A DNA stretch of 49,911 bases, taken from positions 9,758 to 59,668 of the forward strand of contig DHNJ01000274.1 of the NCBI GenBank assembly GCA_002409445.1, written 5' to 3'. Position 1 is the stretch's first letter. Each line of letters begins with the position of its first letter. The stretch is from Armatimonadetes bacterium UBA5419. GTDB lineage: Bacteria > Armatimonadota > UBA10988. Shown in pieces: positions 9,307-48,117 of this stretch. Both the position numbers and the translations under genes were made by a program. The notes under the pieces were generated by a model, which was not told the origin of the DNA, did no database searches, and was given only the letters and a program-made list of their open reading frames with translations.

Positions 9307-10164
9307 GTGCCTTTGTGGTGGTGGTTCTGTCTGGGCGTCGGCCTGCTGCTCGCGGTTACAGCGCTGTACGGCGCAACAGTGGTCGCGTGGCGCTTCCGCT
9401 TGCAGCAGGTCGAGGTCCGGCCGCCGCTCTGGCCGGCTGAGCTCGACGGCCTGACCCTCCTCCAACTCTCCGACCTCCACTGTCGCCGCTCTAGCCGCGT
9501 CGAGAACTGGCTCGCGCAGCTAGCCGAGACCGTCGAGACCCCGGACCTGGTCGTGCTCACCGGCGACTTCTGCGATGGGCGCGCCGGACTCGAATCGTGC
9601 GGCGCGGCCCTGGCGCGCTTCCGTGGGCGCCTCGGCACCTTCGCCATCCTCGGCAACCACGACTTCTACGGCCCCCAACAGAGCACCTACGTCGCCCAGA
9701 TGCTCGACGGCGCGGGCGCGCGGCTATTGCGGGACGAGGGCCTGGCGGTGCGGACCGAGGCCGGAGAGTTCTGGCTCGCTGGAGTCAGCTACGTACGCCT
9801 GGACCGCGGCGGGACCTACGAGCCGCCGCTTGCTCAGGCGCTCGCCGGCCGTGGCGAGCGGCCGGTACTGCTGCTGGTCCACTCGCCCGACGCCATCATC
9901 GAGGCCGCCGACGCCGGTGTGGCGCTAATGATCTCCGGCCACACGCACGCCGGCCAGATCTGCTTCCCCGGTGGGCTGCCGGTGATCAACGGCCTGGACC
10001 GCTTCTCCGTCACCCGCCACTCACGCGGCGTCAGTCAGCGCGACCAGACCACGCTCGTCGTCAGCCCCGGACTCGGCGCCACGCAGCCGGCCATCCGGCT
10101 CAACTGTGAGCCGGCGGCCCTCTGGATCACCGTCCGCGCTACTGCCCCCGATAGCGGTAGTTGA
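9307..10164 (+). CDS. membrane-anchored metallophosphoesterase (YkuE-like)
   Basis: N-terminal TM helix, then the SDLH, GDF, GNHD and GHTH metallophosphatase motifs in order. Confidence 0.8.
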   Translation: MPLWWWFCLGVGLLLAVTALYGATVVAWRFRLQQVEVRPPLWPAELDGLTLLQLSDLHCRRSSRVENWLAQLAETVETPDLVVLTGDFCDGRAGLESCGAALARFRGRLGTFAILGNHDFYGPQQSTYVAQMLDGAGARLLRDEGLAVRTEAGEFWLAGVSYVRLDRGGTYEPPLAQALAGRGERPVLLLVHSPDAIIEAADAGVALMISGHTHAGQICFPGGLPVINGLDRFSVTRHSRGVSQRDQTTLVVSPGLGATQPAIRLNCEPAALWITVRATAPDSGS

Positions 10165-12307
10165 ACCGACCGTTTGGTAGCGCGTCGCCGTTGGTCAGGA
10201 AGGCCATCAGGTCGCCCTCGACCACCGGGTTGTCGACCCACTTGAAGTCGACCGCGAAAGGATCGCCCGTCAAGCCGAGCAGTGTCCGCGGCAACTCAAC
10301 CGCCAACGACGCGCCGTCGAGGTACAGCGGTGCCTGCCCCACCTCCCGCCAGGTGAAGCCTGGGCCCTGCCAGGCCTCGACGATGGTGATGGTCGGGTCG
10401 GCCAGCCGGCGGTTGAGCATGAAGTCATAGCCCTCCCAGCCGGTCTCGCGGCGCCCGTCCACGTCCAGCAGCAGCCACATCCAGGTCGGGTCGGTCGACG
10501 GCGTGATGGGCTCGCGGCATTCGACCTGGAAGGTGACCGTCTCGGCGTTGTGGATCACGCGCGCGGCGACCAGGTCGTTGCGGCCGGTGTTGTTCACGTA
10601 GGCCGGCTGCGAGCCGTAGCCCGGGTGGTCGCGCCGCGCCTCGTCGTGCGACTCGTCGACCACCACCGGCGGCACCGCGGCCCAGGCCGCCGCACCGGCA
10701 CCCGGCGCCAGCGAGCGCCGCGCGGCGGGCGGTGGTGCCGACGCGACGCCCTTGAACCGGCGCACGAAGTCGACCAGCTGGTAGTAAAACGCGTCCAGGT
10801 GCCCGCCGACCATCGGCTCCATGTCGCGGCTATGCGCGCGGTCGAACTGGTCGACGAACATGACCGGGTAGTCAACACCGCCGAACGAGGTGAACCGCCC
10901 AGCGATCCACTCATTCCAGCCGGTGACGAAGACGATGCGCGGGTCCTCGGCCAGAGCGTGCTCGGCCTGCTCGACGAAGTTGAGCCCCAGGTCGACCGCC
11001 GCCGGGTCGGGGTCCCAGGCGCCGTTATGCCACGCGCGGCCCTTGGCATCCGGTTCGCTCATCGAGCCGAGCCGCTGGTCCACCGCGTTCTGCGCCACGC
11101 CGACGCCCATCATCTCGCGCTCGCCCGCCGCATTATGGAACACGTGCTGCGGATAGACTTCCAGCCAGCTCCACTGGTCCGGGCCCGTGGGACCAACGAA
11201 GTAGTCGGGCTGCGGTTTGCGGAAGGTAAAGAAGTCGCGCATCGGGTCGCCCGTCCCGCCGACGTACGTGAGCCGCAGCGTGCGGTCGCCCTCGACCGGC
11301 TCGCCGTCCAGCAACGCCGTTCCGTCCGGCAGGGCATCTCGCGTCACACCCCACCAGCCGACGGTCCCAGTGGGCTCGCTGAGCTCGATCGTGTATTCGC
11401 CGGCCGGCCACCCGTTAGGATTGGCTAGCGTGAGCCAGTCGTTGTCAAACAGCTCCTGGGCGGTCGCCTCGGCCAGGACGGTGCCGGTTGGACCGCCCGC
11501 TCGGAGGCGAATCGTCGCATGGCTGCCCTGCTCGTTCCAGGTCGGGGTCGCGACCGCCACGCTGTCGAACGCCTGGGGCGCGGTGAAGCTCTGGCCCAAC
11601 ACCTGGCCCGGCAGCAACCGGGTCGGATAGCCGTGCTCGCTCAGCCCGGTCATGCCACCGAGCAGGTGCGGGTCCGCCAGAATCAGCGGCTTGCCATCCA
11701 GGTGGTACCACAAGTCAGGGTAGAGGCCCGACTCGTACAGGTCAGCCCACAACTCGCGGACCACCTTGTCCGGCTGCCAGAAGGGGCAGAGGAAGGCCAC
11801 CTGCGGTGTCCGGCCGCCCTCCGCGCGAACCTGGCTCCAGGTCTCCAGCAGCGCCGTGTACCACTCCCGATAGGTGATCTGGTTGGTGACATCGAAGACC
11901 ACGAAGTCAACGCCCGCGTCGCTCAGCATCTGCGCGTGCCGCCGTAGCACGTACGGGTCGTCGGTGCGGTAGTAACCGAACAGCGGCTCACCCCAGTGGT
12001 GCGGCGCATGGATCGGCCCCCAGAGCGGGCTGTCGGGCTTCTGCATGGCCTCGGGGTCGGCAGCGAGGATCTTGGTCACGTCGTAAGGTCCGACCCAGCC
12101 GTTGCCGCCCTGCGCGTGCGCGCCAAGCCAGAGGAAGTAGAAGATGCCGACCTGCTTCTCCGGTCGAGGTGGGCCCGTTTCGGCCGCCGGCGTCAGCGTC
12201 CGGCCCAGGTGGTCGGTGGCCACCACGTCCTCGCGCAGGCCCAGCGGTGGGCCTTGGGCCCAGGTTGTGCTCGCCACCACCAACAGCGTCACCGTCCAGG
12301 GTCGCAT
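10139..12307 (-). CDS. secreted putative glycoside-hydrolase-like protein, family not recognised
   Basis: Signal peptide MRPWTVTLLVVASTTWAQ. The segment GIFYFLWLGAH...WGEPLFGYYRTDDPYVLRRHAQMLSDAGVDFVVFDVTN resembles TIM-barrel glycosidase-like proteins. The C-terminal segment is beta-rich (WMWLLLDVDGRRETGWEGYDFMLNRR). The family assignment is a guess. Confidence 0.4.
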   Translation of the reverse strand: MRPWTVTLLVVASTTWAQGPPLGLREDVVATDHLGRTLTPAAETGPPRPEKQVGIFYFLWLGAHAQGGNGWVGPYDVTKILAADPEAMQKPDSPLWGPIHAPHHWGEPLFGYYRTDDPYVLRRHAQMLSDAGVDFVVFDVTNQITYREWYTALLETWSQVRAEGGRTPQVAFLCPFWQPDKVVRELWADLYESGLYPDLWYHLDGKPLILADPHLLGGMTGLSEHGYPTRLLPGQVLGQSFTAPQAFDSVAVATPTWNEQGSHATIRLRAGGPTGTVLAEATAQELFDNDWLTLANPNGWPAGEYTIELSEPTGTVGWWGVTRDALPDGTALLDGEPVEGDRTLRLTYVGGTGDPMRDFFTFRKPQPDYFVGPTGPDQWSWLEVYPQHVFHNAAGEREMMGVGVAQNAVDQRLGSMSEPDAKGRAWHNGAWDPDPAAVDLGLNFVEQAEHALAEDPRIVFVTGWNEWIAGRFTSFGGVDYPVMFVDQFDRAHSRDMEPMVGGHLDAFYYQLVDFVRRFKGVASAPPPAARRSLAPGAGAAAWAAVPPVVVDESHDEARRDHPGYGSQPAYVNNTGRNDLVAARVIHNAETVTFQVECREPITPSTDPTWMWLLLDVDGRRETGWEGYDFMLNRRLADPTITIVEAWQGPGFTWREVGQAPLYLDGASLAVELPRTLLGLTGDPFAVDFKWVDNPVVEGDLMAFLTNGDALPNGRFNYRYRGQ

Positions 12308-12308
12308 G

Positions 12309-13052
12309 CTACTCCTCCAGGCGTAGGCTGACCTCCCCCGCGGTCACCTGCCGCTTCGAGCCGTCTTCCAGTCGGATGGTCAGCCCACCATGCTGGTCCA
12401 AATCTTCCGCCTGCCCCAGCCACGAGCCCTCCGGCCCGTCGACGCGGACCGCGTGGCCCAACGTCACGTCACGCGAGCGCCACGCATCGCGCACCGGGCC
12501 CGGGCCGTCGCGCAGCAGCCGCTGGTAGAGCGTCCGCAGAGCCTGGGTTAGCACCGGCAACAAGTCGTCTGGCGCGAACTCCCGCTCCGCGGCGGTATTC
12601 AGCGAGGTCGCGGTCTCGGCCAACTCCTCGCCAAAATCGCCTGGCGCCTGGCCGACGTTCAGCCCGCAGCCGACGAGGGCCGCATACGAGTCGCCACAGA
12701 GCACCGTCTCGACCAATACGCCGCCGACCTTGCGAGCACCGAGCAGAACGTCGTTCGGCCACTTGAGCGCCGGCTCCAGCCCGGTCGCCTCGGCCACAGC
12801 CTGGGCCATCGCCGCGCCGGCGGCCAGGGCCAGCCAGGCGCTGTGGGTGAGGTGTGCCGGCGGCCGCAGGATGTAGGTCACGAGCAGCGAGGTGCCCGCG
12901 GGCGCGGTCCACGCCTTGCCCCGGCGCCCGCGCCCGGCCAACTGGTAGCCCGCGACGACCGCCGTGCCCTCGCGCGCGCCGCGTCGCGCCTGGTCGCGGG
13001 CCAGGTCGTTGGTGCTCGTGACTTCCGCGTACCGTATGGCCCTACCCCACAT
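12309..13052 (-). CDS. birA: biotin--[acetyl-CoA-carboxylase] ligase (no HTH domain)
   Basis: The ORF track gives 12309..13166. The ATG at 13052 (MWGRAIRYAEVTSTNDLA) overlaps the upstream stop as TGATG. The GRGRRGKAW biotin-binding loop is present. Confidence 0.9.
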   Translation of the reverse strand: MWGRAIRYAEVTSTNDLARDQARRGAREGTAVVAGYQLAGRGRRGKAWTAPAGTSLLVTYILRPPAHLTHSAWLALAAGAAMAQAVAEATGLEPALKWPNDVLLGARKVGGVLVETVLCGDSYAALVGCGLNVGQAPGDFGEELAETATSLNTAAEREFAPDDLLPVLTQALRTLYQRLLRDGPGPVRDAWRSRDVTLGHAVRVDGPEGSWLGQAEDLDQHGGLTIRLEDGSKRQVTAGEVSLRLEE

Positions 13053-18134: not shown

Positions 18135-19412
18135 CTACTCCTCGGCCTCACCCGCCAGCTGCTCCGGCGTGTGGCACTGCTCGCAGTAGTTCGACTGGTG
18201 GCACTTGACGCACGGCTGGTCCTGGCCGAACTTCGCCTCGCCCGCGTGGCCGTAGATGTAGTTGCGCGGGTGCGGCACGGTCGCGCCGTGGCAGTCGCGG
18301 CAGTCGTTGCTCGTATGGCAGCGGCCGCAGTCCTCGCTGCGCCCCAACGCCTCCAGGCCGTGGACCCGCTCGTAGTCCGCCGGGTGCGGCATCGGCCGGC
18401 CGTGGCAGTCGTCACATTCGCGCTGCTGGTGGCACTTAGCGCAGTTGTCTGGGCTGGACTTCGCCTGCGCGCCGTGCTGTGTGTCGAAGCCTGTCGGGTG
18501 CGGCAATCGCAGCCCGTGGCAGGAGTCGCAGTAGCTCTGCGTGTGGCAGGTCGCGCATCTCGGGTCGTCGCGCTTGGCGGCCGGCCCGTGGGTCGTGCCA
18601 AAGTTGCTCGGGTGCGGGTTGTTGCCTGCGTGGCAGCTGTCGCAGTCGCGCTGGGTGTGGCAGGTGCTGCACTGGCGCTGGTCATGCTGCCCGTGGACGT
18701 CGATGAAGCCCGCCGGGTGCGGCATCGGGAAGCCACCGTGGCAGTCGTTGCAGTAGCTCGGGGTGTGGCAGGTGCCGCACAGCTCCGACTGCGACTTGGC
18801 CATCGGCCCGTGGCTGGCGGCGAAGCCGGCCGGGTGCGGCAGGCTCAGCCCGTGGCAGTTGTCGCACTGGCGCTGCGTGTGGCAGGTCAGGCAGGTCTCC
18901 TGCGGCGCGTCCTGCCCGTGCCCGCGTGCGAAGTCGGCGCGCTTGTGGCTCTCGGGCATGATCACTTCGCCCGCGGTGTGGCAGGTGCGGCAGTCGTCCG
19001 GCGCCTGGTTACCGTCGTGGCAGGCGCCGCAGTGCCGGCTGACACCCCAGGAGTGCTGGATGCCGACCTTCTCGGCGGGTACGGGCGAGTGATCCTCGGC
19101 GGTGTGGCACTGATTGCAATGCAGGCCGCGGTCGGTGTGGTTCTGGTGCGAGAAGCGCAGCCGGCCCTGCATGTCCTCCAGCGGCGTGTGGCACTCGAAA
19201 CAGGTCAGCCCGGTGAGGATATTGCCCTCCACCGTGGGCACACCGGTCACGCCGGGCAGCAGCGACGCGCCCTCGTCGGTCATTGCCTCGGTCCGCGCGG
19301 CGCGCTGGAGTGGCGTCGTCTGTGTGCCGTCGCGCAGGCCGCAATGGGTCAGCAGCGGTGCCAACAGCGCCAGCACCAGCGCCAGGAGGCTCGCGCGTCG
19401 GTGGCTACTCAT
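18135..19412 (-). CDS. multiheme cytochrome c with 18 CxxCH motifs (4 N-terminal plus 7 diheme repeats)
   Basis: The ORF track gives 18135..19565. The ATG at 19412 (MSSHRRASLLALVLALLAPLL, a hydrophobic signal or anchor) overlaps the upstream stop by 8 nt. The 18 motifs, counted by eye, are: CFECH, CNQCH, CGACH, CRTCH, CLTCH, CDNCH, CGTCH, CNDCH, CSTCH, CDSCH, CATCH, CDSCH, CAKCH, CDDCH, CGRCH, CRDCH, CVKCH, CEQCH. Confidence 0.85.
   Translation of the reverse strand: MSSHRRASLLALVLALLAPLLTHCGLRDGTQTTPLQRAARTEAMTDEGASLLPGVTGVPTVEGNILTGLTCFECHTPLEDMQGRLRFSHQNHTDRGLHCNQCHTAEDHSPVPAEKVGIQHSWGVSRHCGACHDGNQAPDDCRTCHTAGEVIMPESHKRADFARGHGQDAPQETCLTCHTQRQCDNCHGLSLPHPAGFAASHGPMAKSQSELCGTCHTPSYCNDCHGGFPMPHPAGFIDVHGQHDQRQCSTCHTQRDCDSCHAGNNPHPSNFGTTHGPAAKRDDPRCATCHTQSYCDSCHGLRLPHPTGFDTQHGAQAKSSPDNCAKCHQQRECDDCHGRPMPHPADYERVHGLEALGRSEDCGRCHTSNDCRDCHGATVPHPRNYIYGHAGEAKFGQDQPCVKCHQSNYCEQCHTPEQLAGEAEE
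18171..18893 (-). repeat. in-frame tandem coding repeat (~114 nt / ~38 aa, about 6.5 copies) encoding diheme units
   Basis: The unit is CxxCH-T-x3-CxxCH-G-x3-PHP-x-GF-x3-HG-x-AK. Copies begin at residues 174, 212, 248, 286, 324, 362 and 401 of the 425-aa protein. Confidence 0.8.
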
Positions 19413-20169
19413 CCTCGGCCGCCTTTGCTCCGTCGGCGTCGACCGTCGGCAGTGGCTGCGTCGGCACGATGCCGTCCGGCCCCGCGAACGCGTCGGCGCC
19501 TTGCGCTTCGAGCACTTCAAGTTCGTTGGGGTGCAATTCCTCCATCTGCTCGCGAGACATCTCACCCGACCACCAAACCATGTTGAGCGGCCAGATGCCG
19601 TTGGCCACGTGCACGTGGTAGACGTGCCCGATGAGCAAGAAGACCAGCGCGAGTACCGACTCTAGGCTGTGCAGATGGACCGCTACGTCGTAGCCAGTTG
19701 GCCCGACCACCGCGTGGGCGGTGGCCTTGAACCAAATGACCAAGCCCGTGCCAATCATCAGCACACTACCGCCGGTGGCCGCCCAATAGTCGAACTTCTC
19801 GATGAAGGAATAGCGGGCGAAGCGCGGGTGGTCGGGCCGTTGACCGATCAGATACTGCACTAGGTGCCAGGCATCCTTGAAGTCGACCAGCCGCGGGATC
19901 GTGCTGAAGCGGAAGGTCCGAGAGCGCCACCGCAGCAGCAGATAGACGATGTGCCAGAGGAAACAAACCGTCAGCGCGGCGCCGAAGAACTTGTGCACCA
20001 GCATCATGTTCTCGACCCCGCCGAACATCCCCGCGATCGTCTGCGCGGGCCTCGTGTCGGCATAGCGCTGGGGCATGCCGGTCAGACCCAGCATGATCAC
20101 CGAGACGAGCAACAACTGGTGCTGGCGAATCTGCGACTTGTCCCAGCGGCGGTAACGGCGTCCTCTCAT
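19405..20169 (-). CDS. FdnI/HydC-type cytochrome b-like integral membrane subunit
   Basis: About 4 TM helices with His residues inside them (RQHQLLLVSVIMLGLTG, LVHKFFGA, VAVHLHSLE, LLIGHVYHVH) and the EKFDYWA block typical of Ni/Fe-hydrogenase/formate dehydrogenase b-type cytochromes. Both ends overlap the neighbouring genes. Confidence 0.75.
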   Translation of the reverse strand: MRGRRYRRWDKSQIRQHQLLLVSVIMLGLTGMPQRYADTRPAQTIAGMFGGVENMMLVHKFFGAALTVCFLWHIVYLLLRWRSRTFRFSTIPRLVDFKDAWHLVQYLIGQRPDHPRFARYSFIEKFDYWAATGGSVLMIGTGLVIWFKATAHAVVGPTGYDVAVHLHSLESVLALVFLLIGHVYHVHVANGIWPLNMVWWSGEMSREQMEELHPNELEVLEAQGADAFAGPDGIVPTQPLPTVDADGAKAAEDE

Positions 20170-21143
20170 GCGTGGCCTCCCGCCTCATCCTCGCGCGCTG
20201 CCTGAGCGGCCAGCGCCGCGCGCGCCGCCCGCCGATAGTTGAGGCGCCGGCGCGTGATGTCGAGGAAAATGTGGATGAACATGACCCCCAGGACCAGGCT
20301 CATCAGGAAGTAGTGGACCTTGCCGATCAGGAAGACAATCGGCCGCACTTGGAAACTGGGCACCTCATGCCCAAAGCTGAGTGCGAACTTCTCGCCCACG
20401 CCCGGATGGCAGCCGGCTCGCCCGCAGCCCTGGTCCACGTTCGCAGGATTGACCGTCGACTGTGGATCGCCCGGCTTGAGGATGGTGTGCGCGTTCTCTG
20501 CCGGCGCATGACAACTGGTGCACACCGCCACCCGACGGTCACCGATCAGTCGTTTGCGCCCATGGAAGTGCAGGTCGTAGGTCTCAACCACGTGCGTGCC
20601 GAGCTGAACCTGGGCCATCACCTTCTGGTCTGCGTGGCAGCTGGCGCAGGTGTCGACCTGCTGGTCGATACCCACCGGACTCTCGAGGTCGTCGAGGCTG
20701 CTGATGTAGTGGTTGCCGTGGCAACTGTCACAGAGCGGGGCGATTTCGCTGCCGGCCTTGCGTGCCTGGCCATGGTCGCTCGCCATGTAGCCGACCGCGG
20801 CCTCCTTGTGGCAGCCCATACAGTTGTTCAGTGCGATCTGGCGGCTAGTGCTCAGCCCCTGCAGGAACGGCGCGTACTGCTCGTCGATGGCCGGCAGGCG
20901 GCCCGCAGCCAAGTCGTGCGGTCCCAAGCCCAACTCGCCATGGCAGCCCAGGCAGCCTTCGCCCCCGTGCTGGGAGAGGAAGAACTTCTGGCCGTCCACA
21001 TGCAGTGAGCGCACGGAGCCGTCCGGCCGCCGCTCGGCCAGGGCGCCCGCATGACAGACCAGGCAGTCGCTGGTCACATCGGCGGGCGCGCTGGTCACCA
21101 ACCAGCACAGACCCACCGCGAAGCTAAGCAGGACATACCTCAC
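20166..21143 (-). CDS. multiheme cytochrome c (6 CxxCH plus one CGRAGCH) with a C-terminal TM anchor
   Basis: Signal peptide MRYVLLSFAVGLCWLVTSAPA. Motifs: CLVCH, CLGCH, CMGCH, CDSCH, CASCH, CTSCH, plus CGRAGCH. C-terminal helix IVFLIGKVHYFLMSLVLGVMFIHIFL, then a basic tail. Confidence 0.85.
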   Translation of the reverse strand: MRYVLLSFAVGLCWLVTSAPADVTSDCLVCHAGALAERRPDGSVRSLHVDGQKFFLSQHGGEGCLGCHGELGLGPHDLAAGRLPAIDEQYAPFLQGLSTSRQIALNNCMGCHKEAAVGYMASDHGQARKAGSEIAPLCDSCHGNHYISSLDDLESPVGIDQQVDTCASCHADQKVMAQVQLGTHVVETYDLHFHGRKRLIGDRRVAVCTSCHAPAENAHTILKPGDPQSTVNPANVDQGCGRAGCHPGVGEKFALSFGHEVPSFQVRPIVFLIGKVHYFLMSLVLGVMFIHIFLDITRRRLNYRRAARAALAAQAAREDEAGGHA

Positions 21144-22105
21144 AGGTCGTCATCCTCGGCGTCGGCGGCCATCTGCGCAGCGATTGCGTCAAACGGCTCG
21201 GGTAGCGGGTCGTGGCACATGCCGCAGTAGTCGGGCTGGTGGCAGTTGAGGCAGGTGTAGGAAAACTCGGCCGCCTCCGTGCCGTGCTCCATGACGTACT
21301 CCTCGGCATGCGGGTAGTCAATCGCGTGGCACTGGTTGCAGAACTCCTGCTGGTCGTGGCAGGTGTAGCAAGTGTCTTCCTTGCCCCGTGCATCGTCGCC
21401 ATGGCCTAAGCGGAAGTCCTTGCGCGCATGGTTCTCAGGCTGCGGCACGTTGCGCCCATGGCAGCCAATGCACAGCGCGCTCTGTGACCGTCGCAAGAGA
21501 TTACGCTGCTCGGTGCCGTGGAACTGGTGGCACATCGAGCACGCCAGAGACCCCTCGTACAGCGGGTGGTGCAGCCCCTGCGCCGCGCGCTCATCGAGGT
21601 CGTCGTGGCAGGGCGAACAGTCCTTGCCCACCTCGGTCTTGAGCAACTGCGTCCGCTCCACCGGCCGATGGACCTCGTGGCATTCGGTGCAACCCAACAG
21701 CTCCGAGTGGTCGCGGTCGAACCACAGACCTTCCTCGATACCCAGGTCCTCGTGGCAGGGCAAGCAGATGGTCGCGCGCTCCTGCACCTCGAGGTCGGCC
21801 CAGGCGACGATCGCCTTGCGGTCGGGCCCGACATGCAGTTCGCCGGGTCCGTGGCAGCCTTCGCAGCCACGTAGGTTGGCCGGCACGGGTGGCTCGGACA
21901 TCAGCTCGCTGTGCTCGACCGAAGCCCATAGCTGCGCGTAAGTATGGTGGCAGGTCATGCACATCGGCGTGCCGATGTAGGCCGCCTCCTCTTGCCCAGG
22001 ACCACGCACCGGACCAGACGGGCCCGCCTGGCCGGTCGCGCTCAGGGCGAAGGCCACGACCGCGAGCAAAGCGAAGACTATTGTGGGGACGCGTTTGAAT
22101 ACCAT
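21140..22105 (-). CDS. multiheme cytochrome c with 11 CxxCH motifs
   Basis: The ORF track gives 21140..22384. The ATG at 22105 yields MVFKRVPTIVFALLAVVAFALSATGQA (signal or anchor). Motifs: CMTCH, CEGCH, CLPCH, CTECH, CSPCH, CSMCH, CIGCH, CYTCH, CNQCH, CLNCH, CGMCH. Confidence 0.85.
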   Translation of the reverse strand: MVFKRVPTIVFALLAVVAFALSATGQAGPSGPVRGPGQEEAAYIGTPMCMTCHHTYAQLWASVEHSELMSEPPVPANLRGCEGCHGPGELHVGPDRKAIVAWADLEVQERATICLPCHEDLGIEEGLWFDRDHSELLGCTECHEVHRPVERTQLLKTEVGKDCSPCHDDLDERAAQGLHHPLYEGSLACSMCHQFHGTEQRNLLRRSQSALCIGCHGRNVPQPENHARKDFRLGHGDDARGKEDTCYTCHDQQEFCNQCHAIDYPHAEEYVMEHGTEAAEFSYTCLNCHQPDYCGMCHDPLPEPFDAIAAQMAADAEDDDL

Positions 22106-22220
22106 CTCGCTGTGGCGAGTATGCAATGCTTCTGCCGCATCCGGACACGCGGGTATACTATCCACAGGGCTTGGCACCGAGTCGTCGCGCGGTGGCTCCC
22201 TACGACCAGGAGAGGGTTCC

Positions 22221-23513
22221 ATGTTGAGTGTGACTCGGCTGCTGTGCGGTACGACCAGCGCCAACGACGCGCTGCGATACGGGCGGAAAGCGGGCAAGAT
22301 GCCTGCCCACCTGCTGCACTTCAGCCGGGACAAGAAACCCGTGGTGGTCTGGAACTGTACCCGCACTTGTAACCTGCGGTGCATCCACTGCTACGCCAGC
22401 TCGCACAACGAGCACTACCCCGGCGAGCTCACCACTGACGAAGGCCGTGCGCTGATCGACGATCTGGCGCAGTTCGGCTCGCCCGTCGTGCTCTTCTCTG
22501 GCGGTGAGCCGCTGATGCGACCCGACCTCTTTGAGCTGGCCGCGCACGCCAAGGACCGCGGCCGCCGCGCCGTGCTCTCGACCAATGGCACGCTGATCGA
22601 CGACAGCACCGCCGACCGCATCGCCGAGGCCGGCTTCTCGTACGTCGGCATCAGCCTCGACGGTCTTGAGGGTGTGCACGACAAGGTCCGTGGCGTGAAG
22701 GGCTCGTTCGAGGCCGCCGTCGAAGGTATCCGCCGCTGCCGCCAGCGTGGCATCCGCGTCGGCCTGCGCTATACCGTGCACAAGCTCAACCTAGAGGAGC
22801 TGCCGGGGATCTTCGACCTGCTTGAGAGCGAGGACATCCCGCGCTGTTGCTTCTACCACCTGGCCTATGCCGGACGAGGCGACAAACTGCAACGGTTCGA
22901 CCTTACCCATGATGAGACCCGCGGCGCGATCGACTACGTCTTCGACCGTACCTTAGACTTCCACCAGCGTGGGCTGGACAAGGAAATCCTGACCGTCGAC
23001 AACCACACCGACAACGCCTACCTCTACCTGCGCCTGCTCCGCGATCAGCCCGAGCGCGCGGACGAAGTCTACCGGCTGCTGGCATGGAACGGTGGCAACC
23101 AGTCCGGCATCGCCATCGGCTGCGTCGACAACCTGGGCCACGTCCACCCTGACCAGTTCTCTTGGCATGTCGACCTGGGCAATGTCCGTGAGCGCCCGTT
23201 CTCCGAGATTTGGAGCGACACCAGCCATCCGCTGATGGCTCTGATGAAGGAGAAGCCGCGCAAGATCGGCGGCAAGTGCAGCCGCTGTCGCTTCTTCGAG
23301 ATCTGCAACGGTAACCTGCGTGTCCGTGCGCACAGTAAGTACGATGACTGGCGCGCGGAGGACCCCGCCTGCTACCTGACCGAGGAAGAGATCGACATCA
23401 ACCTGCCGGTGCCGGATATGAAGGTGCTCGACGCGGTTGACGATGATGCGGCCGCGGCGGATGCCGCGCTGGCTGGCGAGATGGTCGCTGGCGGAGGCGA
23501 GTGCGGACCATGA
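22221..23513 (+). CDS. radical SAM/SPASM protein of the NirJ/AhbC family (candidate Fe-coproporphyrin III synthase AhbC)
   Basis: The ORF track gives 22083..23513. An AGGAGAGGG RBS favours the ATG at 22221. PVVVWNCTRTCNLRCIHCY contains the CxxxCxxC cluster. SGGEPLMRPDLFEL, FYHLAYAGRG and GCVDNLGHVHPDQF are present. The SPASM tail is GKCSRCRFFEICNGNLRVRAH..EDPACYL. By eye these blocks resemble NirJ. Confidence 0.65.
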   Translation: MLSVTRLLCGTTSANDALRYGRKAGKMPAHLLHFSRDKKPVVVWNCTRTCNLRCIHCYASSHNEHYPGELTTDEGRALIDDLAQFGSPVVLFSGGEPLMRPDLFELAAHAKDRGRRAVLSTNGTLIDDSTADRIAEAGFSYVGISLDGLEGVHDKVRGVKGSFEAAVEGIRRCRQRGIRVGLRYTVHKLNLEELPGIFDLLESEDIPRCCFYHLAYAGRGDKLQRFDLTHDETRGAIDYVFDRTLDFHQRGLDKEILTVDNHTDNAYLYLRLLRDQPERADEVYRLLAWNGGNQSGIAIGCVDNLGHVHPDQFSWHVDLGNVRERPFSEIWSDTSHPLMALMKEKPRKIGGKCSRCRFFEICNGNLRVRAHSKYDDWRAEDPACYLTEEEIDINLPVPDMKVLDAVDDDAAAADAALAGEMVAGGGECGP

Positions 23514-24670
23514 GCGGACACCCCGGGGGCCACCCCACCCACCTCAGCGGCCAAGCCGCTGCCGAGCGCCACGGCCACGACGTGAACATGATGCGCGTCG
23601 ACTTCAACCAGGCGCCGTTCACCGTCGTCTGGGAGTTGACCCGTGCCTGTGTCCTGCGCTGTGTCCACTGCCGCGCGGTGGCTCAGCGCACGCGCCACCC
23701 GCAGGAGCTGACCACCGACGAGGGCCGCGACCTGCTCGCGACAATCAAGTCGTTCGGCAACCCGATCCTGGTGCTCACCGGAGGCGACCCGCTGATGCGC
23801 CCGGACCTGACCGAGCTGATCCGCTACGCGGTCCATGACCTCGGCCTGCGCGCCTCGCTGACACCGTCGAGTACGCCGTTGGTGACCAAGGAGCGACTGA
23901 CCGAGGTCAAGGAGGCCGGCATCAAGCGCCTGGCGATGAGCCTGGACGGGGCGACGGCCGATGTCCACGACGCCTTCCGCGGCTTCAGCGGCTCGTTCGA
24001 GCGGACGATGCGCATCCTCGCCGACCTGCGCGAGATCGACCTGCCGTTCCAGCTGAACACGACGGTAACCAACACCAACGTCGACACCCTGCCCGAGATC
24101 ATGGAGCACGTGCGGGCCAGCGGCGCGGTGCAGTGGAGCGTCTTCTTCCTCGTGCCGACCGGCCGGGCCAACGTCGATCAGATGGTCTCGCCCGAACGGC
24201 ACGAGGAGCTGATGCATTGGTTGGCCGAGCTGAGCGAGAAGGCGGTCTTTGACATCAAGTCGACCGCCGCGCCGTTCTACCGCCGCGTGGCGATCGAACG
24301 CCGCCGCGCCGCGGCCGGTGGCGGGCCGGTGACCTTCGCCGGCGCGGGCTTCCGCTACGAGGACGGCCTCGATCGGCCCGTGCAGGGCGTCAACGATGGC
24401 AAGGGCTTCGTGTTTGTCAGCCATATCGGCGAGGTCTACCCGAACGGCTTCCTGCCGGTCAGCGCGGGCAACGTGCGGACCGAGAGCCTGGTCGACATCT
24501 ACCGCGACAGCCAGCTGTTCCGCGACCTACGCAACCCGGACAAGCTCTGGGGCAAGTGCGGCCGCTGCGAGTACCGCGATGTCTGTGGCGGCAGCCGCGC
24601 CCGCGCCTACGGCGTGACCGGCGACATGTTCGCCGACGATCCCGCCTGCGTCTACCAGCCGGCCGACTAG
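23510..24670 (+). CDS. radical SAM/SPASM protein of the NirJ2/AhbD family (candidate heme b synthase)
   Basis: The ATG at 23510 overlaps the upstream stop as ATGA. Blocks present: APFTVVWELTRACVLRCVHCRA, LTGGDPLMRPDL, FQLNTTVT, FFLVPTGRA and GKCGRCEYRDVCGGSRARAYG..DDPACVYQP. Confidence 0.6.
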   Translation: MSGHPGGHPTHLSGQAAAERHGHDVNMMRVDFNQAPFTVVWELTRACVLRCVHCRAVAQRTRHPQELTTDEGRDLLATIKSFGNPILVLTGGDPLMRPDLTELIRYAVHDLGLRASLTPSSTPLVTKERLTEVKEAGIKRLAMSLDGATADVHDAFRGFSGSFERTMRILADLREIDLPFQLNTTVTNTNVDTLPEIMEHVRASGAVQWSVFFLVPTGRANVDQMVSPERHEELMHWLAELSEKAVFDIKSTAAPFYRRVAIERRRAAAGGGPVTFAGAGFRYEDGLDRPVQGVNDGKGFVFVSHIGEVYPNGFLPVSAGNVRTESLVDIYRDSQLFRDLRNPDKLWGKCGRCEYRDVCGGSRARAYGVTGDMFADDPACVYQPAD

Positions 24671-29015: not shown

Positions 29016-29049
29016 CGACGCCCGCGCACCGCTCAGGTCGCGGGCGTCG
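29016..29049. terminator. hairpin (11-bp stem, 12-nt loop) at the convergent tatA/hypB junction
   Basis: CGACGCCCGCG (29016-29026) pairs with CGCGGGCGTCG (29039-29049). The loop contains the hypB stop codon. GCTTTGGG follows on the plus strand. Confidence 0.45.
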
Positions 29050-29698
29050 CGCTTTGGGTCGCCCGCCGCGCGCGCAGCCACTCAAACCAGGCATCCAACC
29101 CCTCGCCGCTCGTACTCGACACGTGGATCACCTCCACCGTGCCGTTGAGCTGCCGGAGGTCATCCATGAACCGTTCCAAGCGAAACGGCACGTGCGGCAG
29201 CAGGTCGGCCTTGGTCAAGAGCACGAGATCCGCCTCGCGCCACAGCCGCGGGTACTTGACGATCTTGTCCTCGCCCTCGGTCACGCTGAGCAGGCCGATC
29301 TTGGTGTCGTGGCCCAGATCGTAGCCGACCGGACAGACCAGGTTGCCCACGTTCTCGATGTACAGCACGTCGAACTCGTCCAGGTCGAAGTGCTCCAACG
29401 CGTTCGACACCATCGCCGCGTCAAGATGGCAGCCGCCATCGGTATTGATCTGGACCGTCTGGGCAAACGGTGCCAGGCGCTCGGCGTCCAAAGATGTCGC
29501 CAGATCTCCGACGACCACCGCCTGCCGCCACTCCTGCGCAAAGTGCTGTAGGGTCTGCTCTAGCAACGTCGTCTTGCCCGACCCGGGCGAACTGATCAGG
29601 TTCGGGCAGAACACACCCGCGGCGCGCAGCCGCGCGCGGATCCCACCCGCCAGGGCGTCGTTCAGCTTGAGTACGTTGTGGACCACATCAACCCGCAT
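29033..29698 (-). CDS. hypB: hydrogenase nickel-incorporation GTPase HypB
   Basis: SSPGSGKTTLLE (P-loop), IENVGNLVCP and LLTKADL blocks. There is no N-terminal CxxCGC motif or His-rich stretch. Confidence 0.9.
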   Translation of the reverse strand: MRVDVVHNVLKLNDALAGGIRARLRAAGVFCPNLISSPGSGKTTLLEQTLQHFAQEWRQAVVVGDLATSLDAERLAPFAQTVQINTDGGCHLDAAMVSNALEHFDLDEFDVLYIENVGNLVCPVGYDLGHDTKIGLLSVTEGEDKIVKYPRLWREADLVLLTKADLLPHVPFRLERFMDDLRQLNGTVEVIHVSSTSGEGLDAWFEWLRARRATQSATPAT

Positions 29699-30035
29699 CG
29701 CTCAACTCCACGCGCGTCAGCAGCAGCTCCGTGCCGTCCACCGTCTCGCAATCCGCGACGTCGCAAACCGGACACAGGAAGACGACATCGTCGACCGCAA
29801 ACTCAAGGCCGCAGCGCCGGCAACGCGCGCGCACCGGCACCGTCTCAATGACTAGAGCGGCGTCCTCGGCCGCCGTACCCACCGCCAAGCCGCGAAACGC
29901 CAACTCCAGGCTCGCTGGCACGACCCCGGCCAACTCACCAGCCTGCACCGTGATCGCCGCTACTCGCGTACCATGCTCCGCCGCGATCTCCAGCACCACG
30001 GGCAGGAGCGCCGCCGCCAGGCTGACTTCATGCAA
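29688..30035 (-). CDS. hypA: hydrogenase maturation nickel metallochaperone HypA
   Basis: MHEVSLAAAL N-terminus (MHE nickel site) and a CRRCG...CPVCD zinc site. 115 aa. Overlaps hypB by 11 nt. Confidence 0.85.
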   Translation of the reverse strand: MHEVSLAAALLPVVLEIAAEHGTRVAAITVQAGELAGVVPASLELAFRGLAVGTAAEDAALVIETVPVRARCRRCGLEFAVDDVVFLCPVCDVADCETVDGTELLLTRVELSDAG

Positions 30036-30534
30036 GGCTAGGCCCTGCCTCCCCCAAAGCGCCAGCCAGCAGCGCAGCCACGAGCGCCTCGGCGCGCGCG
30101 TGGCAGGCTGGCGTCAACTGGTCGTGAAACTCGAAGTCCTCGCCCCGCACCGTGCAGCGGAAGCCCTCGGCACTGCGCCCATACGCACTGTCGGCGAGCG
30201 CCAACAGGGTCGCCGGATCGAGGACATGGGAGGTCAGGCCCAGCCCCGAGCGGCGGTCGACCGGCGCGACCAGCACGTCCGGCTCACCCACGTGCGCGTC
30301 AATGAACAGGACTCGATCTACCTGCGCGCAATCCTCGGCGAGCCCCATGTCGAGTTGCTGCACCCACATCGTCCGCACCCGGTGCTCCGCGACATTGACC
30401 CAGGCGGTCCCCGGCTCGCCCAGCAGCCCGACCGCCGGCAGGCCCCAGGCCGCGTTGAGGCGGTTCAGGACGTAGTGGCCGGCGCCGTCATCGGTGCGGC
30501 TCGGGTTCCCGTAGGCGATGGCCAGGAGGTCCAT
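30028..30534 (-). CDS. hydrogenase maturation endopeptidase (HyaD/HybD/HycI family)
   Basis: The ORF track gives 30028..30612. The ATG at 30534 yields MDLLAIAYGNPSRTDDGAGHYV, the GNxxRxDDGxG motif. The LFIDAH and TSHVLDP blocks supply the metal ligands. Confidence 0.75.
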   Translation of the reverse strand: MDLLAIAYGNPSRTDDGAGHYVLNRLNAAWGLPAVGLLGEPGTAWVNVAEHRVRTMWVQQLDMGLAEDCAQVDRVLFIDAHVGEPDVLVAPVDRRSGLGLTSHVLDPATLLALADSAYGRSAEGFRCTVRGEDFEFHDQLTPACHARAEALVAALLAGALGEAGPSLA

Positions 30535-36037: not shown

Positions 36038-36173
36038 GTCCCTATGATGAGTGATGGTTGGCCGAGCGGCAAGCTGGGCACAAGCGGCGAAGAAGAACCC
36101 GTCGTCCGGCGTTGTATGCTTCGTGAGTGGCGCGCGGCCATCCTGGCGGGCGTGCAGGTGAGGAGCGAGTGGC

Positions 36174-39100
36174 ATGAAATGGGCTTGGTTGATCCTGCCC
36201 CTGTGCGCGGCGCTGGCCTGGGGCCACGACGTCCGCGTCCTCGACGACCAGCGGTGGAACACCGTGGCCGATGGTCCGCTGGGCGGACGCATCATCAACG
36301 ATGACGTCCCCGCCGCCGGGCATCGGTCGGTCCGCGGCCTGCGCCAGGCACCGCCTTGGTTCACCATGCTCCAGCGTCACGGCCTGCTGCCAGCCAACCA
36401 ACCGCCGCCCACGACCCCAGAGTACTGGGTCCGCAGCAGCCAGGGCCGGCTGATCACCCCTGAGCTTGACGCCTCGCGGCAGGCGAGCACCCTGGGAAAC
36501 CCGGGCAACCGGCTGACCTGGGACTTCTCGCGGCCCGCGGGCGACCCGGACGCGGTCGCTTGGTCAACGACGCAGGTCGCCACTCTCCGCAACTACCTCA
36601 ACGCCGCGACCGCCGAGACTTTGAAGGTTTGGGGTGCACCGGCCTTCGCCAACAAGGTGCGCATCGTCCACGACCCGAACCTGAACAGCCTGGAGATGGC
36701 CGCCTACGATGCGACCCGCAACGAGATCCGCATCGAACTGCTCAACGACGCGCGCAGCAGCGACCCCGCGGCGACGGTCATCGACGACTACGACCTGTAC
36801 GTCCTGACGCACGCCGTCCTGCTGGCCTATCGTGACGATGCGGCGATCGGTTACGACTCCTGGGAGTCGGGCATGGCGCGCGCGGCGCAGTTGACGATCA
36901 TCTCCAGCACAAAGCCGTCGTTCGGCTTCCTCAAGCGCGATTTCAACCTACTGTTTGGCGCTTACGATCTGCTGAACCAGCCCGGCCTGGAGAGCCCGCG
37001 CTTCCGCGGCGCCGACACCTCGGCCGCGGCCGACATCCTGACCGACGCCCTCGGCAGCATTCGCGCCTACATGAGCCAGGCCGCCTGGCTGAAGGCGCTC
37101 GCCGAGCGGCCCGGCCTCTTCGCCGACTTCAACGCCGCCTACTACCGGGCCATGGTCAGCGCTGGCAACAGCATCAAATACTCGATCCCCGCGCTGCGCC
37201 GCATCATGACCGGCCTCATCCCGGAGGTCGAGGGCCTCGGCTTCGCCGACTGGTACACGCGCCAGTACGCCTTGGACACCGCCCAGGTGCCTGGCGCCAA
37301 GCTGTATATCTTCGGCACCGTGGCCAAAGACTTCATCGGCGGCCAGCCGACCAACTCGTTCCCCATGAGCATCTATCACTGGGAAACGACACCGTCGAAC
37401 GAGCATCGCGCGCTAACCGGCACCGTACGGTTCACCTACACCGCCTACGATGACTTCAACCTGACTGCGGCGGTCGAGGGCGCCTCGGGCAAGGGCGGCA
37501 TCGAAGCCCGGCTGGGCGAGGCCGGCAATGCGCCCGGTATCGCCAGCGTCGTGCCGCTGTTCTTCAATATCGAGGGCGACCAGGGCCAGCAGATGCAGCG
37601 GATCATCGTCCGCGGCGAGCTGAACGGCATGGATCGACGGCTCTACTTCGCCAACGACGTCGCCGCCAGCGACCAACAGTTGCGCTACGACCTCTACGGT
37701 TTGGTCACCCACGGCTGGCGTGGCAAGCTGAAAATCGAGATTGAAGGCCGCGACAGCGTCGAGACCGACGTGATTCAGGGCGCCTTCCGCGCACGTATTC
37801 CCGGTGGCCTGCCGACCGCGGCGCGCGCCACGCTGACCTGGACCCCGGCCGCCGACAAGGGCTACTCGAAGCCTGACGTCCTGCGCCGCAACGTCATGTA
37901 CCTCGGGCTGCTGGGTAGTGGTATCGACGCGGCCAACGGGGAGGTAACGCTGGTTCTTGACACCCCGCCGCAGACGGCCACCAAGTTCACGAAGACCATC
38001 CCCGCGGGCATCTCGATGATCTCGGTACCGGCCTACGCGGGCCGCAGTAACCTGGCCGAGATCCTCGGGGTGGACGCCGGTGAGTTGCTGCTCGCGCGCG
38101 CCGACGGTGCGGTGACCAGTGCGCAGCCCTGGCGGCAAAACGAGATCTACCGCCTCTGGCCGAGCACACCGAGCTTCCAGCCCGGGTACGGTTACTGGGT
38201 ACGTACGACCAAGCCAGTGACACTGACGTACGAAGGTGTCCCCGCCGACTCGACGCAGCCCTACCGCCTTTGGCTGCCACCCGGTTGGCAGCAGATCGGC
38301 AACCCGTTCCCCGAGTTGCTGCTGACAGTTGGTAGCCTCCGTGTCCAAGCGCCGGACGGCAACGCCGCGGTCAGCCTAGCCCAGGCGCAGACCGCCGGAC
38401 TCGTGTCCAGTGGCCTGTTCTCGTGGGCGGGGAGCACCGGCTATCGGCTCCTGTCACCGACCAGCCAGCTCACGCCGTACGCGGGGTTCTGGATCAACGT
38501 GCTCAGCCCCAAGGGCGTCACACTGATCTTCCCGAACTCGCTGTCACCCTCGGCCCGCGCGACGCTGGAGCGCGCCGAGGCCGCCGACGCGCAGGGCTGG
38601 CAGGTTCAGCTGTCCGCTCGCACTGACGAGTCGAGCGAGCAGCTCGCCGTCCTCGGCGTGCAGGCCGGCGCGGGCGAGGGCTACACTTGGCGCGACGCGC
38701 CGCGGCCGCCCGCGCCACTGGGCAGCCACGTGGCCGTCTCCTTCCCGCGCGACGACTGGGGCGCGCAGAGCGGGCGCTACGTGCGTGACCTGCGCGATCC
38801 GGCCGCCGGCACGGCAAGCTGGGACGTGCTGGTCGAAACCGACCAGATCGGCCGCGACGTGACGCTCAGCTGGCCCAGCCTCAAGAGCGTACCCGGCGAT
38901 GTGTCGCTGGTCCTGACCGACCTGACCAACGGGCGGCAGCAGTTCATGCGCACCAGTGCGGCGACGACCTTCCGCGCGGCGGCGGGCGGCAACCGCTTCC
39001 GCATCACCGCCAGCCGCGCGAGCAACACACGCCTGGCGGTGCTCGATCTGGGCGCCCAGGTCACCCGCGCACGCGCGGGCACGATGACCTACACGCTGTC

Positions 39101-39326
39101 AGGGCCCGCGACGGTCAACGCCGTGCTCTACAGCCAGGCCGGCCAGCGGATCAAGGCCCTCACCGAGGGCCGGGCGGCGGGTGCGGGGACCGGCAGCATC
39201 GAGTTCCTACCCACCGACGAGGCCGGGCGGCCGCTGCCCAACGGCGTCTATCGGCTGGACCTCATCTGCGTGGGTGAAGACGGACAACAAGCGCGGGCCA
39301 GCCGGCTCGTGGTCGTGGAGCGCTGA
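36174..39326 (+). CDS. large secreted protein of unknown function (1050 aa) with a C-terminal FlgD-Ig-like beta-sandwich
   Basis: Signal peptide MKWAWLILPLCAALAWG. No catalytic motif was recognised. The C-terminal 80 aa (TYTLSGPATVNAVLYSQAGQRIKAL...NGVYRLDLICVGEDGQQARASRLVVV) resemble FlgD-Ig/T9SS-type sorting-like domains. Confidence 0.5.
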   Translation: MKWAWLILPLCAALAWGHDVRVLDDQRWNTVADGPLGGRIINDDVPAAGHRSVRGLRQAPPWFTMLQRHGLLPANQPPPTTPEYWVRSSQGRLITPELDASRQASTLGNPGNRLTWDFSRPAGDPDAVAWSTTQVATLRNYLNAATAETLKVWGAPAFANKVRIVHDPNLNSLEMAAYDATRNEIRIELLNDARSSDPAATVIDDYDLYVLTHAVLLAYRDDAAIGYDSWESGMARAAQLTIISSTKPSFGFLKRDFNLLFGAYDLLNQPGLESPRFRGADTSAAADILTDALGSIRAYMSQAAWLKALAERPGLFADFNAAYYRAMVSAGNSIKYSIPALRRIMTGLIPEVEGLGFADWYTRQYALDTAQVPGAKLYIFGTVAKDFIGGQPTNSFPMSIYHWETTPSNEHRALTGTVRFTYTAYDDFNLTAAVEGASGKGGIEARLGEAGNAPGIASVVPLFFNIEGDQGQQMQRIIVRGELNGMDRRLYFANDVAASDQQLRYDLYGLVTHGWRGKLKIEIEGRDSVETDVIQGAFRARIPGGLPTAARATLTWTPAADKGYSKPDVLRRNVMYLGLLGSGIDAANGEVTLVLDTPPQTATKFTKTIPAGISMISVPAYAGRSNLAEILGVDAGELLLARADGAVTSAQPWRQNEIYRLWPSTPSFQPGYGYWVRTTKPVTLTYEGVPADSTQPYRLWLPPGWQQIGNPFPELLLTVGSLRVQAPDGNAAVSLAQAQTAGLVSSGLFSWAGSTGYRLLSPTSQLTPYAGFWINVLSPKGVTLIFPNSLSPSARATLERAEAADAQGWQVQLSARTDESSEQLAVLGVQAGAGEGYTWRDAPRPPAPLGSHVAVSFPRDDWGAQSGRYVRDLRDPAAGTASWDVLVETDQIGRDVTLSWPSLKSVPGDVSLVLTDLTNGRQQFMRTSAATTFRAAAGGNRFRITASRASNTRLAVLDLGAQVTRARAGTMTYTLSGPATVNAVLYSQAGQRIKALTEGRAAGAGTGSIEFLPTDEAGRPLPNGVYRLDLICVGEDGQQARASRLVVVER

Positions 39327-41245: not shown

Positions 41246-41331
41246 CCTATCACCCAAACTACTGGGACGATGGCCCAGGCTGCGCCTAGCTCCGGCAGGG
41301 CTCAGCCTGGGTTCATCGTGACTACTCACCC

Positions 41332-44941: not shown

Positions 44942-44997
44942 GGTGCTTGCGGGAACCTGCCTCCTAGATCAGAATGATTCCTAACAAGGCTTGAGCA

Positions 44998-48114: not shown

Positions 48115-48117
48115 GGG

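Follow-up and report, generated by a model that had tools for sequence, protein, structure and literature searches.

Within a 49,911-nucleotide stretch of the genome of Armatimonadetes bacterium UBA5419 (contig DHNJ01000274.1, positions 9,758 to 59,668 of the forward strand; hereafter the window), four minus-strand genes at positions 18135-22105, here called A to D, encode three multiheme c-type cytochromes and a cytochrome b. Our reading, to which we give a probability of about 0.65, is that the products of the two central genes, B and C, form a CbcBA-type menaquinol:cytochrome c oxidoreductase of the inner membrane that would feed electrons to the periplasmic cytochromes A and D, likely for extracellular or periplasmic electron transfer. 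With its B-C core, the cluster falls into a known, very large, and widespread family, and what is new is an Armatimonadota-specific accessory set together with an uncharacterized family of diheme-repeat cytochromes. The genes are laid out as follows:

21140-22105, minus strand: gene A, a periplasmic 11-heme c-type cytochrome of 321 residues
20166-21143, minus strand: gene B, a membrane-anchored seven-heme c-type cytochrome of 325 residues, CbcA-like subunit
19405-20169, minus strand: gene C, a four-helix diheme cytochrome b with the FdnI fold, 254 residues, CbcB-like putative quinone/quinol-interacting subunit
18135-19412, minus strand: gene D, an 18-heme c-type cytochrome of 425 residues, probable lipoprotein

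The codon-position guanine-plus-cytosine content of all four open reading frames (ORFs) follows the pattern of real genes, and neighboring genes overlap at each junction. A and B have GTGA in common (4 bases, 21140-21143), B and C overlap by ATGA (4 bases, 20166-20169) with GGAGG upstream, and the overlap of C and D comprises the 8 bases ATGAGTAG (19405-19412). A preliminary description of this DNA had reported overlapping minus-strand genes, and its coordinates agree with the ORFs, their translations, and the letters at the junctions. Its heme motif counts (11 CxxCH in A, 6 plus a CGRAGCH in B, 18 in D) and its claims of an N-terminal signal or anchor on A and a C-terminal transmembrane helix in B were likewise reproduced, with N-terminal signals predicted from hydropathy on A, B, and D. 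In the whole 50-kb window, only A, B, and D have more than one CxxCH per ORF, whatever the ORF size, and motif counts gave no CxxCK in A, B, C, or D. The same description had seen neither a catalytic enzyme nor a porin in the cluster, and our searches, which took in the flanks, agree. Pfam scans, which took in 33 ORFs of the window with the five at 44995-49910 lying outside them, gave no match to a molybdopterin or Fe-S enzyme of respiration (no search aimed at copper enzymes was made) and none to MtrB/PioB (PF11854) at E<=1e-5, and tblastn with the MtrB-like porin of a relative (locus L025, see below) found no match anywhere in the 50 kb.

Gene C, which has 12 histidines and no CxxCH, matches PF01292 with 54.5 bits (cut-off 30.1) and scores 44.2 bits against the formate dehydrogenase gamma equivalog TIGR01583, below the cut-off of 115.85. 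Its AlphaFold2 (AF2) model, with a predicted local distance difference test score (pLDDT) of 76, has four long helices, and the sole significant fold match in the PDB is E. coli FdnI (1kqf_C; TM-score 0.70/0.80, E 2.3e-6), which is also matched by a family profile built from 26 diverse C homologs (E 7.9e-11). Sequence identity to the membrane part of E. coli formate dehydrogenase-N (Fdn-N) is only 18%, but FdnI (1KQF) and C are alike in fold and in the four heme-ligand histidines: H17, H59, H167, and H182 of C align with H18, H57, H155, and H169 of FdnI and are invariant in 26 of the 26 homologs. Equally invariant are H73 and H187, which FdnI does not have; they lie in the cytoplasmic half of helices 2 and 4, where FdnI has Met and Phe, and could belong to a quinone site or an extra cofactor site. 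The earlier view of C as an FdnI-like b subunit with four transmembrane helices and histidine pairs is borne out by the Pfam and NCBIfam matches, the 1kqf_C fold, and the four aligned ligands. So is the proposed FdnH/FdnI-like layout with hemes in place of Fe-S clusters: FdnH and B alike give one C-terminal transmembrane helix, that of B being placed like the FdnH anchor, while B has seven c hemes where FdnH has four Fe-S clusters. E. coli Fdn-N further contains the molybdoenzyme FdnG, whereas the B-C cluster has no FdnG-like gene.

Gene B contains six CxxCH motifs and a CGRAGCH of the Cx4CH type, followed by the membrane anchor:

20406-20426, minus strand: CGRAGCH, the seventh heme site of B (residues 240-246) and the last before the membrane anchor
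20253-20309, minus strand: C-terminal transmembrane helix of B (residues 279-297, FLMSLVLGVMFIHIFLDIT); a histidine lies within it, and hydropathy peaks at 2.14

In an alignment of 19 B family members (alignment A3), five heme motifs of B are invariant, and CGRAGCH is a genuine heme site because the same block of columns holds CxxCH or Cx4CH in 19 of 19 sequences, with both cysteines and the histidine invariant. The histidine of the transmembrane helix recurs in 14 of the 19 aligned homologs, and a candidate b-heme ligand has been described in the C-terminal domain of CbcA (Joshi et al., bioRxiv 10.1101/2021.04.15.440034). A CbcL-, NapC/NirT-, or NrfH-type identity of B was ruled out by topology and sub-threshold scores; B reaches 15.1 bits against NapC/NirT (PF03264) with a cut-off of 24.1, and no protein of the window attains that threshold.

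The pairing of B and C extends far beyond the window. When one genome per species was scanned, C relatives turned up at more than 583 loci, of which the best 80 were analyzed, and all window proteins were compared by tblastn with 86 loci. In 77 of these best 80 loci, which represent more than 15 phyla (Zixibacteria, Calditrichota, Ignavibacteriales, Acidobacteriota, Bacillota, Myxococcota, Chloroflexota, Bacteroidota, and others), the gene immediately upstream of the C-like one encodes a B-like multiheme c protein; two of the remaining three are cut by a contig end and one has no B-like gene. The B-like proteins carry 5-11 hemes and nearly always show a transmembrane peak near the C-terminus. 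B and C are fused as one ORF in Anaeromyxobacteraceae and Myxococcales, and natural fusions are also found at loci L050 and L087. Searching with the C profile gave 3402 proteins at E<=1e-10 among 8000 candidates scored; family members bear generic names ("cytochrome b/b6 domain-containing" or "formate dehydrogenase gamma"), and the best 120 profile matches listed come mostly from Deferrimicrobiaceae. A remnant of a formate dehydrogenase or of a hydrogenase was rejected as an explanation, given the multiheme c partner upstream in those 77 of 80 loci and the lack of genes for Mo, Ni, or Fe-S subunits nearby. As a side observation, a Calditrichota locus (L004/L014:273-4804) encodes a C-like cytochrome b, then a 522-residue multiheme protein, and then a 654-residue protein in which 11 CxxCH motifs are fused to a PF01292 domain with multiple transmembrane helices, a CbcL-like architecture.

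The arrangement of B and C has a counterpart in Geobacter, where CbcBA has been genetically characterized and is used in metal respiration; there cbcA, encoding a seven-heme periplasmic cytochrome with a C-terminal transmembrane domain, precedes cbcB, encoding a diheme cytochrome b with four transmembrane helices (Joshi, Chan and Bond, bioRxiv 10.1101/2021.04.15.440034). Encoded after cbcB is CbcC, a large dodecaheme periplasmic cytochrome that takes electrons from CbcA in vitro (PMC13591261; PMC11434368). The window resembles this system in that a seven-heme c subunit with a C-terminal transmembrane helix is encoded immediately before a separate diheme PF01292 b subunit with four such helices, in that a gene for a large periplasmic multiheme cytochrome comes just after the b subunit, and in that the cluster encodes no catalytic enzyme. 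The phyletic spread of the B-C loci also matches the published one, fused forms included: CbcBA homologs have been reported in Anaeromyxobacter, where BccR-like σ54 regulators lie close by, in Calditrichaeota, Bacteroidetes, and Verrucomicrobia, and in fused form in Chloroflexi (bioRxiv 10.1101/2021.04.15.440034). At the Anaeromyxobacter locus L080, a fused protein with seven hemes and a PF01292 domain is followed by a histidine kinase and a receiver-σ54-helix-turn-helix regulator, whose domain architecture is that reported for BccR. The fused clusters of Anaeromyxobacter and Myxococcales beside such a regulator match C with 33-37% identity (tblastn E 1e-34 to 1e-39), and Joshi et al. name clusters of this kind as CbcBA homologs (bioRxiv 10.1101/2021.04.15.440034). 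What places B-C in the CbcBA family is thus architecture, the published phyletic spread, and the Anaeromyxobacter intermediates, not a direct alignment with GSU0594/GSU0593. The preliminary description held that syntenic homology to a named complex would make the module ordinary, and for half of it, B-C, such homology is indicated, since layout, phyletic spread, and association with a BccR-like regulator all match CbcBA.

That description had also likened the cluster to a Cbc- or CbcL-like quinol conduit of Geobacter. The likeness to Cbc stands, but the match is CbcBA/Cbc5 instead of CbcL, as judged from the separate subunits and their topology. CbcL (Cbc1) similarly combines a b-type quinol-oxidizing domain with a multiheme c domain and serves low-potential extracellular acceptors, yet it is one polypeptide with nine hemes and six transmembrane helices, whereas the window has separate B and C with four helices plus one; moreover, CbcL was reported to be without sequence homology to CbcB (bioRxiv 10.1101/2021.04.15.440034). 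NapC/NirT/CymA/NrfH proteins do the same general job of moving electrons from quinol to periplasmic cytochromes but are N-terminally anchored tetraheme c cytochromes, whereas we assign quinone chemistry to the b-type subunit in the window. Differences exist from Geobacter Cbc5 as well (cbcA GSU0594, cbcB GSU0593, cbcC, cbcD, cbcE): The window has no equivalents of cbcD and cbcE and no upstream hypothetical genes, its downstream partner is D, an 18-heme diheme-repeat protein and probable lipoprotein, and not a dodecaheme CbcC (compared by description), and, unlike in Cbc5, an MtrA-like 11-heme gene precedes the core.

This last gene, A, starts at 22105, which is Met94 of a longer ORF and is followed by a signal peptide, and it encodes 11 CxxCH motifs. 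Comparison with MtrA (6r2q_A, phmmer) gave E 2.3e-13 across about 10 heme sites, but the scores of 129.7 bits against the NCBIfam GSU2203-family (cut-off 325) and 97.7 bits against the DmsE family TIGR03508 (cut-off 192.2) fall below their thresholds, so that by sequence A appears to be a distant MtrA/DmsE relative and not a family member by curated threshold. While about 10 of its heme motifs align with those of the MtrA/DmsE decahemes, A has 11 hemes, and its C-terminus consists of two diheme units of the type found in D. A further difference from the MtrCAB conduit is that ORF scans and the porin tblastn revealed no MtrB or MtrC gene in the 50-kb window.

The product of gene D, started at 19412, has 18 CxxCH motifs, as do six of the six close homologs listed. 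An N-terminal c7-like heme domain (residues 86-146; 67.9 bits against PF14522) precedes the repeats:

18138-18902, minus strand: repeat region of D (residues 171-425), in which a diheme unit of 36-39 residues recurs about 7.5 times in tandem

The unit reads xxxCxTCHTQxxCDxCHGxxxPHPxGFxxxHG, or CxxCH-x4-CxxCH-G-x3-PHP-x-GF-x3-HG, with heme spacings that alternate regularly between 9 and 27-30 residues, and an alignment of units (A5) shows C, C, H, C, C, H, P, H, and H to be invariant. D is probably a lipoprotein, as suggested by a lipobox-like LLTHC whose cysteine is conserved in close homologs, including some with a canonical lipobox; in more distant relatives, an N-terminal transmembrane helix takes its place. 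A profile of the repeat unit had no significant match among PDB sequences, and Foldseek gave no fold matches with a model of D that is poor (AF2 with a 15-sequence alignment, pLDDT 57, predicted template modeling score 0.27). Among 1.84 billion proteins, an exhaustive search with D gave 554 cluster representatives at E<=1e-10, of which 64 also pass E<=1e-30, with 6-32 hemes in the best 150 and up to 37 when locus L086 is counted; their names are "hypothetical" or a generic "cytochrome c3/NapC," and none is functional. Many D relatives carry a NapC/NirT N-terminal domain. In an Armatimonadota metagenome-assembled genome (MAG; L088:2955-8434), a 21-heme D-like protein is encoded directly after a Psr/Nrf-type set of Fe-S, NrfD, and molybdopterin oxidoreductase genes. 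Together, the NapC/NirT fusions and this Psr-type adjacency suggest that D-like wires attach to several kinds of quinone module.

The complete cluster is conserved among close relatives. A word-index search with C alone gave 10 proteins, and contigs of C relatives that are 57-63% identical carry the same four genes in the same order next to the same divergent pair of radical S-adenosylmethionine (SAM) genes. The full A-B-C-D order is found at loci L001-L003, L005/L006, L009, and L010 at 41-63% identity, with heme numbers also kept, and L010 retains it at only 41-46%; the four-gene order and heme motifs of the preliminary description are thus kept in relatives. Among the loci examined, this order is seen only in Armatimonadota-type contigs. 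The closest C relative among the genome loci (61%) belongs to an Armatimonadetes groundwater MAG (L009), which has argG downstream at 88% identity. The C-like gene of that MAG (L009:7983-8713) is matched only over the C-terminal 130 residues, within a 166-residue ORF, probably reflecting a frameshift or assembly error.

Units of B, C, and D occur more broadly (L025, L043, L050, L070, L086, and L087), and a D-like gene follows a C-like gene in at least 10 independent loci. The D-like proteins of these units have very different heme numbers:

L043: 11 or more hemes
L050: 13 hemes
L070: 20 and 32 hemes in two proteins
L025: 26 hemes
L087: 28 hemes
L086: 37 hemes

Two of these loci (L070:228-11774 and L086:2080-14713) contain tandem arrays of B-C(-D) modules, which look like modular duplication of a quinol-oxidase-plus-wire unit. 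On an Armatimonadetes chromosome (L025:5347-14643), the series B, B, C, C, D is followed by an MtrA-like decaheme gene and then by an MtrB_PioB porin gene whose product exceeds the Pfam threshold (26.2 bits, cut-off 23), which ties this set of parts to a porin-cytochrome conduit in at least one relative. The preliminary description had singled out the module as an uncharacterized system, and this needs to be divided: The core falls into a very large family and is CbcBA-like, while the additions of A and D and the linkage to ahbCD-like genes (see below) are specific to the lineage.

In the mechanism that we propose, C would exchange electrons with the quinone pool through two b hemes stacked across the membrane, with H59 and H167 on the periplasmic side and H17 and H182 on the cytoplasmic side. 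The C-terminal transmembrane helix of B would dock on C as the FdnH anchor does on FdnI, which would place the last heme of B (Cx4CH) next to the outer b heme. From the heme chain of B, electrons would pass to the co-translated periplasmic cytochromes, the soluble 11-heme protein A and the lipid-tethered 18-heme protein D, which may form a chain of diheme repeats in the position that CbcC has downstream of cbcB. Altogether, A-D might line up as many as 36 c hemes and 2 b hemes between the quinone pool and partners at or beyond the outer periplasm, and extracellular or periplasmic electron transfer is the most likely role of the set. Gene layout, the FdnI fold of C with its ligand histidines, and the conservation of the B-C pair and of the A-B-C-D order are observed; we infer how the subunits assemble, in which direction electrons flow, where quinone binds, and what the terminal partner is. 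Were quinone bound on the cytoplasmic side as in FdnI, outward quinol oxidation would, from the established bioenergetics of Fdn-N, consume membrane potential, and by analogy such a cost would fit the low-yield, low-potential role of CbcBA in Geobacter, which runs outward from the quinol pool to low-potential acceptors.

Several observations weigh against this mechanism. FdnI natively reduces menaquinone, so that flow through C could run inward. All four FdnI-type ligands are held by C, whereas Joshi et al. count three in CbcB and one in CbcA. Geobacter sequences are neither among the best 80 of the more than 583 loci nor among the best 120 C-profile proteins. The window has no ORF containing the GAF[TS]GA motif of σ54 activators, and upstream of A there is no -24/-12-like TGGC-N8-TGC element, unlike in the Geobacter operon; a promoter and terminator scan of the operon was otherwise uninformative. 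The 33 window ORFs scanned and the porin tblastn yielded no porin, terminal reductase, or outer-surface cytochrome. Finally, it is only from gene overlap and synteny that we infer an assembly of A and D with B-C, and the model of D (pLDDT 57) is too poor to show its shape.

The synteny evidence bears directly on a narrower reading that we consider possible but doubtful, namely that only B-C forms a complex, that A and D are unrelated to it and merely co-transcribed, and that the "stoichiometric complex" proposed earlier over-reads overlaps of start and stop codons. Short overlaps are indeed common in GC-rich genomes, most of the 80 B-C loci are without A and D, and CbcC of Geobacter is a soluble partner in redox equilibrium with CbcA and not a fixed subunit. 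However, the A-B-C-D order persists down to the 41-46% identity of L010, D-like genes come after C-like genes in at least 10 independent loci, and A and D have the same diheme repeat unit, which suggests that they co-evolved. The same complex might instead work in reverse, taking electrons from a donor outside the cell or in the periplasm, be it Fe(II), reduced humics, a syntrophic partner, a cathode-like mineral, or a periplasmic hydrogenase, and passing them through A and D to B, C, and menaquinone on the cytoplasmic side, in an FdnI-style redox loop that generates proton-motive force. C does match the menaquinone reductase FdnI in fold and four heme ligands, MtrA-family proteins are also part of the Fe(II)-oxidizing PioAB/MtoAB systems, hypA and hypB in the window point to a Ni enzyme, probably a hydrogenase, and nothing in the cluster fixes its polarity. 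Nevertheless, we regard reverse flow as unlikely: CbcBA, the one studied relative, works outward to low-potential acceptors, B-C pairs are found in many anaerobic metal- or sulfur-reducing lineages (Anaeromyxobacter, Desulfosporosinus, Calditrichota), and the window has no Cyc2, hydrogenase structural genes, or oxidase.

A more conventional role is also conceivable in which the cluster would act like CymA, NapC, or NrfH as a quinol-dehydrogenase hub for soluble periplasmic reductases encoded elsewhere (for nitrite, N-oxides, sulfur, or metalloids), with A and D as electron buffers. The cluster has no porin or surface cytochrome, D-type repeat proteins are fused to NapC/NirT domains elsewhere, and at L088 a D-type repeat protein follows a Psr/Nrf-type enzyme, which implies that D-like wires serve conventional periplasmic enzymes, too. 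We think this very improbable because 36 c hemes are far above the need of a hub, the core is co-translated with an MtrA-like subunit, a gene for an MtrB/PioB porin adjoins the same set of parts at L025, and a reductase is linked to the cluster in 0 of 7 A-B-C-D loci.

Although studied in a single organism, CbcBA has been put forward as an indicator of extracellular respiration outside Geobacter as well. The present locus, from a poorly known diderm phylum, places a CbcBA-type core among other conserved accessory genes, which encode an MtrA-like cytochrome and a diheme-repeat probable lipoprotein, with putative anaerobic heme-synthesis genes linked to them. On multiheme cytochromes of Armatimonadota, a literature search yielded nothing beyond a mention of "multiheme cytochromes of unknown function" in a hot-spring lineage. 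Should the assembly of A and D with B-C be real, the locus would allow the wiring of a quinol oxidase across a periplasm to be studied with just four genes, would contain a heme-repeat fold not yet characterized, and would supply a genomic signature of electron exchange for Armatimonadota of groundwater and sediment; otherwise, it would be one more uncharacterized member of a very large cytochrome bc family. We tentatively raise a more general idea, though we doubt that it will hold in full: D-type proteins could be length-tunable wires (6 to at least 37 hemes), tethered by a lipid or transmembrane helix, that plug into CbcBA-, NapC-, and Psr-type quinone modules; B-C, D, and an MtrA-like cytochrome could make up a complete inner-to-outer-membrane conduit in Armatimonadota, which would endow this phylum, known mainly for aerobic heterotrophs, with a capacity for extracellular electron exchange; and H73/H187 might mark a quinone site or third cofactor site unlike that of FdnI.

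The cluster is flanked downstream by argG and gltX and upstream by two divergent radical-SAM genes, after which come sugar-metabolism genes. The divergent pair comprises:

22083-23513, plus strand: AhbC-like radical SAM/SPASM enzyme (12,18-didecarboxysiroheme deacetylase family), the divergent neighbor
23501-24670, plus strand: AhbD-like radical SAM/SPASM enzyme (heme b synthase relative), second gene of the pair

The AhbC-like protein scores 588 bits against TIGR04546 (cut-off 650) in a match that begins at ORF residue 50, and the true start of its gene is probably near 22190-22250. The AhbD-like protein passes TIGR04053 (480 bits, cut-off 395) and reaches 375 bits against the AhbD model TIGR04545 (cut-off 500). 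In relatives with the full cluster, the AhbC-like gene is 79% identical and has the same divergent position at L001-L003, L005, and L009, and the AhbD-like gene is 78-90% identical and syntenic at L001, L002, L005, and L009, but the pair is not found upstream of the cluster at L010. No ahbA or ahbB gene lies in the window. A plausible link, as an association only, is that the pair provides siroheme-dependent or oxygen-independent heme synthesis beside an operon that would need up to 38 hemes per set.

Elsewhere in the window, two ORFs were considered as porin candidates, 10139-12343 (minus strand) and 36162-39326 (plus strand), and rejected when their sequences, as read, proved not to be beta-barrel-like. 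Both encode large secreted proteins (734 and 1054 residues, respectively) with signal peptides and without a Pfam match at E<=1e-5. At 29033-30113 (minus strand), a hypB-like gene (CobW/HypB) and hypA suggest the maturation of a Ni enzyme, probably a hydrogenase, although no hydrogenase structural genes were recognized among the window ORFs scanned. A single ORF at 41290-42864 (plus strand) has weak matches to LptC and to LptA/LptD-N, neither with a stretch that passes on its own, and fits a diderm cell with a lipopolysaccharide-containing outer membrane.

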